NCBI GenBank assembly: GCA_029856435.1 | Contig: JAHQXB010000043.1 | Span: 1 to 37,827, forward strand | From: Candidatus Jordarchaeia archaeon | GTDB lineage: Archaea > Asgardarchaeota > Jordiarchaeia > Jordiarchaeales > Jordiarchaeaceae | Direction of reading: 5' to 3' | Length of the DNA: 37,827 bases | Made by a program: the position numbers and the translations under genes | Shown: positions 24,455 through 27,517 of the stretch, piece by piece | Layout of the letters: every line of letters begins with the position of its first letter | Position numbering within the stretch: position 1 is the first letter of the stretch | The notes under the pieces: model-generated | Database searches by the model: none | What the model was told of the DNA's origin: nothing | The model's input: the letters and a program-made list of their open reading frames with translations, nothing else

Positions 24455-25564
24455 CTATAGGCGGACGTCTCTGAGAAGAGTAATAATATTGTTTCTTCCC
24501 CGAGGCTCCCTCTTAATGAAGCCCTTCTTCTCCAATATGGAAAGCGTGATGCTCACCTTAGCTTTACTATAATTGGTGGCCTTCTGAATCTCCTTCTGCG
24601 TGACACGCTTATTTTCAGATGAAGCGATAACTCGGAGAATCTCAATCTCTGCCTCGTTAAGCAGGGTGAGAGAAGTGTCAGTCACCGTTTCAACCAGTTT
24701 TGTTCTATGATAAAGATAGAAAACAAACATCCCAATAACAAGACCCAACAAAAAAATAGCAACAAAAAGTGAGGGACTAGAAGAGGTGGGGTATAAAACT
24801 GGAAAATAAAGTATTTGTGGTATCAGGGCCGCATCTGAGAGTTGGTATCGTATCACAAAAAGCTCGGTGCTCCCCTCATCTAATTTTAAGCTCCACTGGA
24901 AAAGTAAAGAGGAACCATCTGTAAAGTTTAAACTATCTATGGGATAGAGGGGGTCGACACCGGAATACAAAAACCTCTCAGGCGGAAGCTTCACCCGGAA
25001 AACTATATTTTTCATGTTAACATCCGCTTTGAGCATGTAAGAAAACTGAGTGTAACTGGTGGTAAGTGAAACCACCTGGGAAGTATCAAAATCAACAGTA
25101 AAATTATAAAAAGAATTGGGCTCAAGATTAGATACATTCAGACGAACAACAGTTTTGGTAGACAAAGTATCAATTATCGTGTCATAAAGCGGCCCAGTTT
25201 TATTTTCCACCCGGAGGTTTATGATATTGGTTAAACTGAAGGAAACGTTTAACTCATCTATAGGTGTGGCTCCCGTATTATTTGCGGAGAAAAAGCAAGA
25301 GAAATGAGCAGTATCATTATCATAAAGGATAATATTAAACTCCACATCAACATACTCAAACGAAGAAGGAGACTTAACAGTCAAGAATGGAGAATCACAG
25401 TAATGATAAAGAGGAGAAATGCAAAAAGAACTGTTGTGAAATTGTCCATAGGAAAGATATGAAAAACAGGCGAAAAGTAAAACAAGTATCACAATTAAAA
25501 AGAATGCTCCCTTTAGACGAGTATACCCCACTGGACTTTTTAATATAGGAACACTAGCACACAT
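24455..25564 (-). CDS. Membrane-anchored winged-HTH regulator (COG2512-like): N-terminal TM/signal, extracellular beta-rich glycosylated domain, TM, cytoplasmic wHTH (start uncertain; ORF extends to 25672)
   Basis: Hydrophobic FFLIVILVLLFACF; many N-x-S/T sequons; TM LFVAIFLLGLVIGMFVFY; C-terminal LNEAEIEILRVI...VTQKEIQKATNYSKAKVSITLSILEKKGFIKREPRGRNNII. Confidence 0.8.
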   Translation of the reverse strand: MCASVPILKSPVGYTRLKGAFFLIVILVLLFACFSYLSYGQFHNSSFCISPLYHYCDSPFLTVKSPSSFEYVDVEFNIILYDNDTAHFSCFFSANNTGATPIDELNVSFSLTNIINLRVENKTGPLYDTIIDTLSTKTVVRLNVSNLEPNSFYNFTVDFDTSQVVSLTTSYTQFSYMLKADVNMKNIVFRVKLPPERFLYSGVDPLYPIDSLNFTDGSSLLFQWSLKLDEGSTELFVIRYQLSDAALIPQILYFPVLYPTSSSPSLFVAIFLLGLVIGMFVFYLYHRTKLVETVTDTSLTLLNEAEIEILRVIASSENKRVTQKEIQKATNYSKAKVSITLSILEKKGFIKREPRGRNNIITLLRDVRL

Positions 25565-25900
25565 TAAAACACCGTCAAGCGAACTTACTCCTATTCTACA
25601 TTTCCTGCAGATTACTTTAAGTTTTACCAATAGGGCACAAAAATAAATAACCGCCATTTTTGACCAGCCCATTGTGAAGCATTACAAACACGAAAACAAG
25701 CATGGTCCAGCAGTGAATCTATGGTTTACTAAAGGTGATTTTCCTGCTTTGTTTCTTCCCACCGCCATCCTAAAAGGTGCTGTTCTTATGCTTCTCGACC
25801 CGCTAGGCTTAAAGTACCATTTGCAAACTATATTTGAAAATATCCCCTTCAAACAAGACCCTGAAGGAGCTTTGAATTAAAATTAGAATCGGAGGGAATA

Positions 25901-26277
25901 GTGACCTCCTCCACTATTTGAAAATGGTGGCTTCCAAGTTTCGTTCACCATTTCCCGCTTGTCGCCAAGGCGGCTTTTTATGGATGCTTGCGAGGTTGCA
26001 CCTCTACCTTCAAGGCTTTAACGGTACACAGACCAACGCCTCTCAGGCTTATCTCCCTCTTCCTTGTGCTTCAGGGCTTGGTCACCTAGTGAATGGTACT
26101 CCAGTCAAGACCCTATGCCAGACGTCGAGACTAGCATTCGTTCGTTGCCGAACGTATCGAAGCCCTTTTTGGGTATCCCAAGCTTCATCCGCACAGCGTG
26201 GCTTGGGTTTCTCCGATTGTTCCACTTGTGGAACATTTTGATATTCTGTTCACTTCGCCGGCTTTACCTCGATTCAT
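25901..26277 (-). ncRNA. Putative highly structured RNA (omega-RNA-like scaffold) filling the IS605-derived element
   Basis: Consecutive stems (plus-strand coordinates): 26218-26235 (8 bp perfect), 26177-26207 (7 bp outer), 26139-26154 (6 bp, GCAA tetraloop on the minus strand), 26115-26137, 26073-26114 (enclosing 26082-26092), 25992-26004, 25963-25972. No credible ORF. Confidence 0.55.
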
Positions 26278-26315
26278 CCACGTTTGAAAACGTTGGTCTT
26301 CTTGAGGTGGTCTTT
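25901..26315 (-). mobile_element. Non-autonomous IS200/IS605-family element (PATE-like), 415 bp, lacking tnpA and tnpB
   Basis: Minus strand: target-like TTTAT (26320-26316), AAGA at +16..+19, left hairpin CCAACGTTTTCAAACGTGG (26296-26278); right end GAAG plus hairpin CCACCATTTTCAAATAGTGG (25930-25911), terminating in GGAGGAGGTCAC. No terminal inverted repeats and no target duplication, as expected for HUH (Y1) transposons. Confidence 0.85.
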
Positions 26316-26377
26316 ATAAAGGGTTCGTTGATAGCTGGTAAATTTTGGGAAAGTTTTTGGTGGGATCAAGTAATAAA

Positions 26378-27517
26378 TTAAATTCCTTTTCTTTTCAGGT
26401 AATAAACGATGACGGCTATTAGAGCACCAGCAGTAACTCCTAAAATAATGAGAGGGGCCGGTTCCATTGAAAATGTGTAATAGTACAAAACTAGGTGAAG
26501 AGGAGGGATGATTTCTGGGGCATTGTCAGAGGGAGGATTATGCATCGAGAAGGAAGGGTCCAAAAGGATGCTGCTGTCAAAATGGGGCACCGATGAGTAA
26601 AGGTTAAAGGCTGTTCCATTCGTCATGAATGAGGAATTCAGAGGTATAAGAGATTCATCCTCCTTTACTGCCAAGTTAAACCAGCGTATCTGACCATGAG
26701 TCACATTGTCAGGTGTAACGAGGGAAATTAAGCTCTCATTTTTATTACCAGTGACGGAGGGTACAGGACTGGTATTAACCATGATGTTAGTGCTGTCAAT
26801 TTTGCTTCCATTAGCAAGCTGGAACAAGTGTTTCAAATTTCCCGGCATAACTTCACTCTTAAGAGCTATATTTAAGGCGAGCATTCTGCTGCTATAATTT
26901 CCATACCCGTCCTCTGGTGCCCACTTGTAGTTACTAATTAAGATGAGAGTTTTAACCGTTAAATCTCCCAGCACTGTGAAATTAATTTCGGGGTAATGCT
27001 CACTGATTGCTACGGTTTTTGTTGTAAGGTAAAGATTTTGCCAAAAAATGATAATCATAGGTGGCGTGAATTTCAAGTTTATTCCAATCTGGTATAAGAC
27101 CACTTCACCAGAATTGGACATGATGTGATACGACCAATCGAATTCCGCCAGATCAGTGGTATTGATTTGGGTGTCGGTAAGGTCAAAAATGCCATTTTGG
27201 TTGGTGTCGTTAAATTCAATTAGTTTGTTGTAGTGAACTCCGAATTGAATGTTTTTTGTGTGATTTTGTGTGAAGGAAAAGATTCCGGAAGGCAAGTAGC
27301 TCCCATTGTCAGAGGGTAGCAGGCTTAGCATAATTTTGTTTGAGAAAAGCACCCCTTGGCTTTGGTTGAAGCCTGATGACGTTTCAACTTGAGGCGCGCC
27401 GTATTCCCAAATACTTAATGTCGCCACACTAGGCGCAGAGAGTAAGGGAACAATTACGATGAAGAATAGTAGAACCAATGTAAAGAGTATGGTGAATAGT
27501 TTTGAGCTGCGAAACAT
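26378..27517 (-). CDS. Secreted/membrane-anchored glycoprotein, 379 aa, function unknown
   Basis: N-terminal signal/TM; more than ten N-x-S/T sequons; LIEFNDTNQNGIFD Ca-binding-like motif; C-terminal TM LIILGVTAGALIAVIVYY followed by the basic tail LKRKGI. Confidence 0.85.
   Translation of the reverse strand: MFRSSKLFTILFTLVLLFFIVIVPLLSAPSVATLSIWEYGAPQVETSSGFNQSQGVLFSNKIMLSLLPSDNGSYLPSGIFSFTQNHTKNIQFGVHYNKLIEFNDTNQNGIFDLTDTQINTTDLAEFDWSYHIMSNSGEVVLYQIGINLKFTPPMIIIFWQNLYLTTKTVAISEHYPEINFTVLGDLTVKTLILISNYKWAPEDGYGNYSSRMLALNIALKSEVMPGNLKHLFQLANGSKIDSTNIMVNTSPVPSVTGNKNESLISLVTPDNVTHGQIRWFNLAVKEDESLIPLNSSFMTNGTAFNLYSSVPHFDSSILLDPSFSMHNPPSDNAPEIIPPLHLVLYYYTFSMEPAPLIILGVTAGALIAVIVYYLKRKGI

Follow-up and report, generated by a model that had tools for sequence, protein, structure and literature searches.

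A gene-less IS200/IS605-family element of an Asgard archaeon with a probable omega-RNA scaffold as its only cargo

Introduction

Which function, if any, is served by a densely structured intergenic segment in the genome of a Candidatus Jordarchaeia archaeon? The segment is found in the window, by which we mean the whole stretch of 37,827 nucleotides that was analysed. An initial annotation, made from the letters alone, described positions 25935-26277 as a putative non-coding RNA that is the only cargo of an IS200/IS605-type element. It was thought to be either an orphan, unusually large omega-RNA-like scaffold serving a nuclease in trans, or a different large mobile RNA class.

RNAs and elements of this kind have precedents. 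In the cryo-EM structure of ISDra2 TnpB, the omega-RNA bases -5 to -3 pair with bases -103 to -105, forming a pseudoknot that is conserved in Cas12 guide RNAs (PMC10097598). The PATEs of Geobacillus stearothermophilus "often encode omega-RNAs" that need TnpB in trans (PMC10055086). Halobacterium has a transcribed PATE RNA, VNG_R0052, and sotRNAs at tnpB 3' ends, and a UUCA tetraloop resembling that of the right end is known from sotRNAs, from HgcC and from a PATE RNA (PMC4615843).

Results

The window carries a non-autonomous IS200/IS605-family element

The structured segment lies in a 700 nt gap between two minus-strand genes (24455-25672, whose product is a wHTH/MarR-like protein, and 26378-27517), and the GC content is ~52% inside the gap compared to ~40% in its flanks. 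Five genomes of the same genus lack the element, and in two of them (G003 and G004) the orthologous intergenic region has been kept. The element-free site of these two genomes reads GAGAATATTAAAGAG, compared to GGGAATA, the element and then ATAAAGGG in the window. Deleting positions 25901-26315 from the window results in a gapless alignment to the orthologous region of G003 and G004. Thus, the element is 415 nt long and was inserted directly after TTTAT (26320 to 26316), without duplication. The element and its ends are:

25901-26315, minus strand: whole gene-less IS200/IS605-type miniature element (PATE) of 415 nt, defined by repeat copies, the empty site and ends matching those of the autonomous element L033
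26316-26320, minus strand: target or transposon-adjacent motif (TAM) TTTAT, directly 5' of the left end, single and not duplicated
26262-26315, minus strand: left end with a subterminal hairpin at 26278-26296, whose loop is UUCA in the minus sense, from alignments of copies in the own genome
25911-25930, minus strand: right-end subterminal hairpin CCACCAUU-UUCA-AAUAGUGG with a UUCA tetraloop, whose stem covaries among homologs

Both end hairpins have the form CCACnnTTT-GA-AAAnnGTGG. The asymmetric loop GA is oriented alike in the two hairpins, which shows that they are direct, as in IS200/IS605 elements, and not inverted. The last bases of the right end finish in a TCAC cleavage motif. The A/T-rich motif TTTAT/TTAT is retained at nearly all copies in the own genome, the exception being copy C68, and also at the elements of other archaea; the empty-site relatives carry an A/T-rich hexamer at the insertion position. 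We conclude that the window element is a non-autonomous IS200/IS605-family element (PATE) in an Asgard archaeon. Its own copy of the right-end hairpin contains one C.A mismatch, and its left end differs from that of other copies by a 1-nt deletion and a C-to-A change. With these small defects in both end hairpins, the window copy may no longer be active.

The orientation of the element is given by L033, a complete element of another archaeon, whose ends match those of the window element. Between both ends L033 encodes, divergently, a Y1 TnpA (PF01797, E = 3e-40) and a TnpB (PF07282, E = 2.5e-20). Its tnpB terminates inside the hairpin that is homologous to the one at the window's left (25901) side. 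Therefore, this side corresponds to the right end of the transposon and the window minus strand to its top strand; left and right end are used in the transposon sense throughout. The left-end hairpin overlaps the stop codon of the Y1 tnpA both in L033 and at C15:19860-20026 in the own genome. In an exact-pattern scan with one of the ends, the same end was found in assemblies of Hadarchaeota and of the Asgard archaeon Ca. Sifarchaeum. G018, a genome from the phylum of the window's genome, appears to be this Sifarchaeum MAG, since the pattern matches of its locus L025 coincide in position with those of L028; this also assigns the window's genome to the Asgard phylum.

The own genome (3.54 Mb, 181 contigs) contains ~10 copies which fall into two subfamilies and are 77-93% identical. 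Five full copies show 87-88% identity to the window copy, and one further copy is interrupted by an internal insertion. Members of subfamily 2 are ~315 nt long and have in common with the window copy only the 213 nt on the right of the window sequence (26108-26320), with an analogous hairpin at their other end. The copies are multiple and dispersed, consistent with TnpA putatively mobilising them in trans. At the end of contig C15, a TnpA C-terminus (WSPGYYIGTAGHVSAETIRKHIEGNLNSYTI, then a stop codon) is followed by a matching left end (C15:19860-20026), and contig C152 starts with a tnpB-like C-terminus and a matching right end; it is likely that these are the two parts of an autonomous copy that was split by the assembly. 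A tnpB with a matching 3' end was not found in the assembly of the own genome, where the best match to the TnpB of L033 has 27% identity, and the GGAGGAGGTCAC terminus is present in this genome on miniature elements only and on no tnpB.

Two observations concern individual sequences. The full copy at C168:1923-2459 (L006) contains an extra ~105 nt within the scaffold, between halves that match the window at ~26030 and ~26040. Moreover, window positions 25690-25880, between the element and the downstream wHTH gene, are well conserved in two genomes of the same genus (alignment A3). This stretch contains small frames (25674-25880, plus strand, 68 aa; 25682-25852, minus strand, 56 aa) and could be a small gene or a leader.

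The right end forms a conserved fold with a covarying closing helix

The last ~215 nt at the right end of the element (26117 to 25901) form a conserved fold with a covarying closing helix. Its features are:

25901-26117, minus strand: conserved omega-RNA-like scaffold of ~215 nt (covariance model R2, 216 positions; cmsearch 251.5 bits)
26080-26085, minus strand: 5' strand of the closing helix or pseudoknot, GUGACC, complementary to the terminal hexamer of the element
25901-25906, minus strand: 3' strand of the closing helix, GGUCAC, the terminal bases of the right end
25955-25973, minus strand: hairpin CCG(C)CUUG-GCGA-CAAGCGG with a GNRA loop, with covariation in an alignment of 16 sequences
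25885-25900, minus strand: predicted guide segment, the flanking DNA read from the right end, according to the layout of TnpB omega-RNAs (PMC10097598; PMC10055086)

The right end finishes, in all lineages, with six bases that can pair with a hexamer further upstream, and six complementary variants of this pseudoknot were found among the copies and genomes. GUGACC:GGUCAC is present in the subfamily of the window and in two metagenomic sequences, the remnant L072 and the element L073. GUGAAC:GUUCAC is found in L033, C152 and subfamily 2, with the upstream hexamer ~95-100 nt away in the loop of a GGGCUG..CAGCCC hairpin. The copy C113 has GUAACC:GGUUAC, a double compensatory change in the closing helix, a tnpB pseudogene on contig C23 of the own genome has GUGAGC:GCUCAC, and distant relatives have GUGACG:CGUCAC and GUGACA:UGUCAC. 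The two strands are 180 nt apart in the window, compared to ~95-100 nt in its relatives and in ISDra2. With the last bases before the flank paired to an upstream segment, the closing helix reproduces the pseudoknot layout of the ISDra2 TnpB omega-RNA.

Covariation was analysed in three alignments. In the first (A5), which consists of the seven short-form sequences L033, L072, C152 and four copies of subfamily 2, 95.4% of the cells are paired and 7 pairs are compensatory, which was matched by none of 500 shuffles. In the second (A6), comprising five copies of the window subfamily and L073, the terminal closing helix was chosen by RNAalifold itself, and 10 pairs show compensatory changes, two of which fall in the 25955-25973 hairpin. 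The third (A8) contains 16 sequences that were fitted to model R2, and its counts are thereby biased towards the modelled structure: 91.6% of the cells are paired, as opposed to 71% in shuffles and 33-41% in slid controls, and 40 of 55 pairs are compensatory, again matched by 0 of 500 shuffles. All seven pairs of the 25955-25973 hairpin are compensatory in A8, and its loop stays GNRA (GCGA or GUGA) in the sequences inspected by eye. Thus, the covariation among homologs on which the initial annotation had made its RNA depend is indeed present when distant homologs are included. The five full copies of the own genome, taken alone, have diverged too little for such a test: with them, RNAalifold recovers 2 compensatory pairs and a positive covariation term.

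As a single sequence, the minus strand folds weakly better than shuffled controls (-105.8 kcal/mol, z = -2.0, 3 of 100 shuffles as good), and the plus strand has a z of -1.35. The alignment-based comparison is stronger: the RNAalifold energy relative to column shuffles has a z of -5.7 in the minus sense and of -4.6 in the plus sense.

The 5' module is structured but shows modest covariation

Upstream of the scaffold, the left ~145 nt of the interior form a separate part:

26118-26261, minus strand: 5' module, 85-92% identical to subfamily 2, with hairpins at 26218-26235, 26177-26207, 26139-26154 and 26116-26136

The stems reported in the initial annotation could all be located in the sequence. 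They include the 8-bp perfect stem TGTTCCAC/GTGGAACA at 26218-26235 and, at 26139-26154, the stem CGTTCG-TTGC-CGAACG with a GNRA loop (GCAA when read from the minus strand); a further stem, CCCAAGC/GCTTGGG, is found at 26177-26207. The metagenomic homolog L078 is 77-80% identical to the 5' module. When it is included, 93.3% of the cells are paired with 3 compensatory pairs; of 500 shuffles, 14 matched this. The GCAA loop changes to GGAA and is still GNRA, and the stem at 26116-26136 shows two compensatory changes. The covariation of the 5' module is modest, and only suggestive of being real. The claim that stems extend across the whole interior therefore holds for their presence, but strong covariation as one fold applies to ~215 of the ~340 nt, with the left ~145 nt showing the modest signal. 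Likewise, the interval 25935-26277 is structured as described, but the scaffold extends further on the right-end side, to 25901.

The 5' module may be a 5' extension of a guide RNA, a remnant of tnpB or something else. A left-end guide RNA of the IscB type was considered as its identity and found to be without Rfam support.

The scaffold is related to RNAs at tnpB 3' ends

An overlap with the 3' end of tnpB is normal for omega-RNA scaffolds. In a tblastn search with 13 TnpB proteins against the elements, only the TnpB of L033 gave a match, and only to subfamily 2: its residues 342-402 align with 39.7% identity over 63 aa (E = 2e-6). Subfamily 2 translates to a sequence ending in GAVVNQPITEALPSSELSSVVQGTASEATLLKGW and a stop codon, which aligns with the C-terminus of the L033 TnpB, and this alignment extends into the 5' module common to the window's subfamily, covering the ~57 nt at the 3' side of the module. 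The possibility had been raised that the region is a decayed tnpB coding sequence; an alignment of this kind exists in the sister subfamily 2. The best blastx match of the window copy had an E of 0.39. Since an overlap with the tnpB 3' end is the normal arrangement, the alignment in subfamily 2 does not refute an omega-RNA.

The short-form covariance model R1, built from the relatives, matches the 3' end of the tnpB pseudogene on contig C23 of the own genome. In the complete Asgard genome G021 its matches lie 15-60 nt past the TNB domain of four tnpB genes, and R1 recognises the 3' part of the window subfamily as well. The pseudogene locus itself (C23:12700-14500, minus strand) consists of a frameshifted tnpB followed by an R1-type scaffold.

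Rfam searches at gathering scores gave no match in the whole window. At E <= 10, positions 25500-26700 matched HgcC (RF00062) and noise only, and HEARO, the RNA of the IscB/IsrB type named in the initial annotation, was not found even at this threshold, nor were other IS605/IS607-associated motifs. The gathering score of HgcC is 50 bits. All matches remained below it: 20.9 bits (E = 0.027, relaxed E-value) for the window at 25892-26004 on the minus strand, 28.9 bits for the copy C113, and 42.9 bits (E = 9e-7) for the metagenomic L072, which is matched over the full length of the model. The link between HgcC and tnpB 3' ends suggests that HgcC, whose function is listed as unknown in Rfam, is a family of TnpB right-end (omega-RNA-type) RNAs. 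Further weak HgcC matches (15-19 bits) were seen at C160:22484-22622, C36:17018-17156 and C127:4826-4965 in the own genome and at G021:C1:2422563-2422664. These directly follow tnpB 3' ends encoding DRDLNA..NI before the stop codon.

RNAs at tnpB 3' ends and HgcC have in common with the fold its hairpin, terminal motif and pseudoknot, and there is no need for a different class of large mobile RNA to explain the element. The other proposal of the initial annotation, an orphan and unusually large omega-RNA-like scaffold, largely agrees with what we find: the scaffold resembles omega-RNAs of the TnpB type, is on the minus strand, has no nuclease gene and is longer than its TnpB-linked relatives.

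The enlarged scaffold recurs in gene-less elements of other Asgard genomes

Model R2, the covariance model of the right-end ~215 nt of the window subfamily, was searched against 151 Asgard genomes, including the own genome. Full-length matches were obtained in 6 other Asgard genomes (E between 1e-12 and 2e-4), and the complete genome G021 alone contains eight. At none of the nine R2 loci inspected is the match directly preceded by a TnpB ORF or by similarity to TnpB, and none of the eight matches of G021 is near any of the 46 TnpB-domain matches in this genome. Thus, among the loci checked, the enlarged scaffold type is confined to gene-less elements. Compared to the TnpB-linked forms, it contains ~90-110 nt of extra GNRA-capped hairpins. 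Because R2 was never found beside tnpB in the inspected loci, it is by homology of its 3' core that we assign it to the TnpB omega-RNAs. BLAST searches of the interior against 400 Asgard genomes recovered the own genome only, and all homologs beyond it surfaced through covariance models or end-motif patterns.

Many of the 46 TnpB-domain matches of G021 (2.8 Mb) are intact frames of 380-500 aa, which makes this genome suited to pairing orphan scaffolds with nucleases. The gene-less elements L082 (in G031) and L090 (in G021) have a second right-end-type hairpin, GGAAGCCCACGCCC..GGGTGGGAGGA, ~400 nt before their right end. This hairpin at their start is unlike the left end of the window element, and their 5' halves are unrelated to its 5' module.

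The strand assignment rests on tnpB orientation and loop motifs

The minus strand had been proposed to be the RNA strand on the basis of its GNRA loop and of G-U pairing. The GNRA loop is confirmed, but G.U counts show no strand asymmetry relative to A.C: in the helices of the own copies, A.C mismatches are about as frequent as G.U (16 versus 15 and 10 versus 16). This is expected under neutral drift after insertion, and individual copies indeed look as if they drift neutrally. The strand call therefore relies on the orientation of tnpB and on the GNRA and UUCA loops and not on wobble pairs. Covariation alone does not separate an RNA structure from one in single-stranded DNA.

As to transcription, TTTAT together with the first AAA of the left end might, speculatively and judged by its letters, act on the RNA as an archaeal TATA box (TTTATAAA). 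Most copies have a minus-sense run of 5-8 T next to the left end, on its inner side (alignment A2, columns 53-66; window ~26262-26266), which is missing from the window copy, C160 and C68. The run could terminate archaeal transcription coming from the left, and simple read-through from TTTATAAA is disfavoured since the run lies downstream of it in most copies.

Discussion

We think that this PATE probably carries what the 3' core of its interior suggests: a TnpB-type omega-RNA scaffold as its only cargo, read from the minus strand and predicted to guide TnpB in trans. The RNA would be transcribed through the right end into the flank, so that the guide would correspond to about 25900 to 25885. 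A TnpB made elsewhere in the cell would load the RNA and cut alleles in which TTTAT and the flank are joined without the element, and repair would restore the element. A Y1 TnpA, likewise made elsewhere, would move the element as single-stranded DNA.

The alternative that survives best, although we consider it rather unlikely, is an inert relic: a decaying internal-deletion derivative of a tnpA and tnpB transposon, whose stems were inherited from the ancestral tnpB 3' end or omega-RNA region and serve nothing now. The mere 77-93% identity of the copies, the A.C mismatches in helices at about the frequency of G.U, the mismatch and the deletion in the end hairpins of the window copy, the lack of a cognate tnpB in the assembly and the five genomes of the same genus without the element would all fit a relic. 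However, the enlarged scaffold is found in full length, with many compensatory changes and always gene-less, in at least 6 other Asgard genomes, which requires selection on an RNA or DNA fold in spreading lineages. Moreover, the double compensatory change of C113 (GUAACC:GGUUAC) preserves the closing helix.

A bolder version of the guide-RNA reading, which we hold to be unlikely, is that the enlarged ~215-nt scaffold represents a separate Asgard lineage of guide-RNA-only selfish elements. These would have shed the nuclease gene permanently and would borrow both TnpA and TnpB from other transposons. The extra GNRA-capped hairpins and the 5' module would be adaptations, either for the capture of a nuclease encoded elsewhere or for an additional function directed at the host.

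Less probable still, the element could carry a structured RNA with a job unrelated to TnpB, be it regulatory, antisense or as the partner of another protein, that rides on IS605-type ends. Such an RNA would be compatible with R2-type scaffolds never being beside tnpB in the checked loci, with the ~90-110 nt of GNRA-capped hairpins that the TnpB-linked forms lack and with a 5' module common to two subfamilies; overexpression of the Halobacterium PATE RNA altered growth (PMC4615843). It is at odds with the presence and covariation of all parts that characterise a TnpB guide scaffold, namely the hairpin of the right end, the terminal motif and the pseudoknot involving the bases next to the flank, and with model R1, which comes from the relatives and falls on tnpB 3' ends.

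It is highly improbable that the hairpins act in single-stranded DNA, with a role in stabilising or marking the strand that TnpA excises in "peel-and-paste" transposition. IS200/IS605 elements do move as single-stranded DNA and their TnpA reads DNA hairpins (PMC10055086), the structure of the opposite strand is nearly as good (z = -4.6 versus -5.7), and G.U is not in excess over A.C. But the known TnpA requires subterminal hairpins and cleavage motifs only, the GNRA (GCAA/GGAA, GCGA/GUGA) and UUCA tetraloops of the interior are kept in the tnpB-sense strand as RNA-type motifs, and the long-range helix to the last six bases matches an RNA pseudoknot solved by cryo-EM.

A small protein gene on the plus strand (25918-26241, 107 aa; 26064-26381, 105 aa) is effectively refuted: several copies do have plus-strand frames of 105-137 aa, but 1-nt indels change and break them between copies so that they are not conserved, the pyrimidine-rich plus strand makes stop codons rare, and the single database match of the 107-aa frame is a spurious ORF on another element copy (L078). 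As had been proposed, the element contains no tnpB- or iscB-like ORF.

Gene-less IS200/IS605 elements that carry only a guide RNA have been mentioned for bacteria and haloarchaea and are little studied. If the guide-RNA reading is true, the window RNA is a concrete example of a guide RNA that can act only in trans, with relatives over several Asgard lineages that are nuclease-less at every checked locus. Its compact archaeal scaffold and the TAM (TTTAT) are candidates for work on Asgard TnpB nucleases. For annotation, a set of GC-rich, hairpin-rich intergenic islands of the own genome is explained as mobile elements. PATEs carrying guide RNAs were already known; what is new is a PATE family in Asgard archaea whose scaffold is enlarged and well supported.

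How does the element compare to known systems? Like the ISDra2 omega-RNA, its RNA has the same sense as tnpB and is located at the right end, where it stops at the boundary of the transposon, and the guide would be the flank. In both, the bases before the guide pair upstream (~100 nt away in the relatives and 180 nt in the window copy) and the target motif doubles as TAM. Unlike ISDra2, the window element has no tnpB and a matching one is not found in the assembly, the two pseudoknot strands are separated by about twice the length of scaffold, and there is no detectable sequence similarity.

HEARO, the omega-RNA of IscB and IsrB, is also a large structured RNA tied to IS200/IS605-family elements. 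However, it is found at the left end, upstream of iscB, and has a 5' guide, whereas the fold in the window abuts the right end. HgcC of Methanocaldococcus jannaschii (RF00062) resembles the window RNA in that both have, on the 5' side, a hairpin GGGCUG..CAGCCC with a loop complementary to GGUCA on the 3' side, and then an end hairpin followed by GGAGGAGGUCA. The window RNA differs in that ~90 nt are inserted between these parts and that the 5' hairpin of the model aligns to a different stem.

A parallel in lifestyle is provided by the PATEs of Geobacillus and Halobacterium, which, too, are gene-less, have IS200/IS605 ends including an end hairpin with a UUCA tetraloop, and presumably depend on TnpA in trans while supplying a guide for TnpB in trans. 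In contrast to these, the window element resides in an Asgard host and, at 415 nt, far exceeds the size of a left and a right end simply joined. It has an additional 5' module and a conserved, enlarged scaffold, of which a TnpB-linked version was not found.
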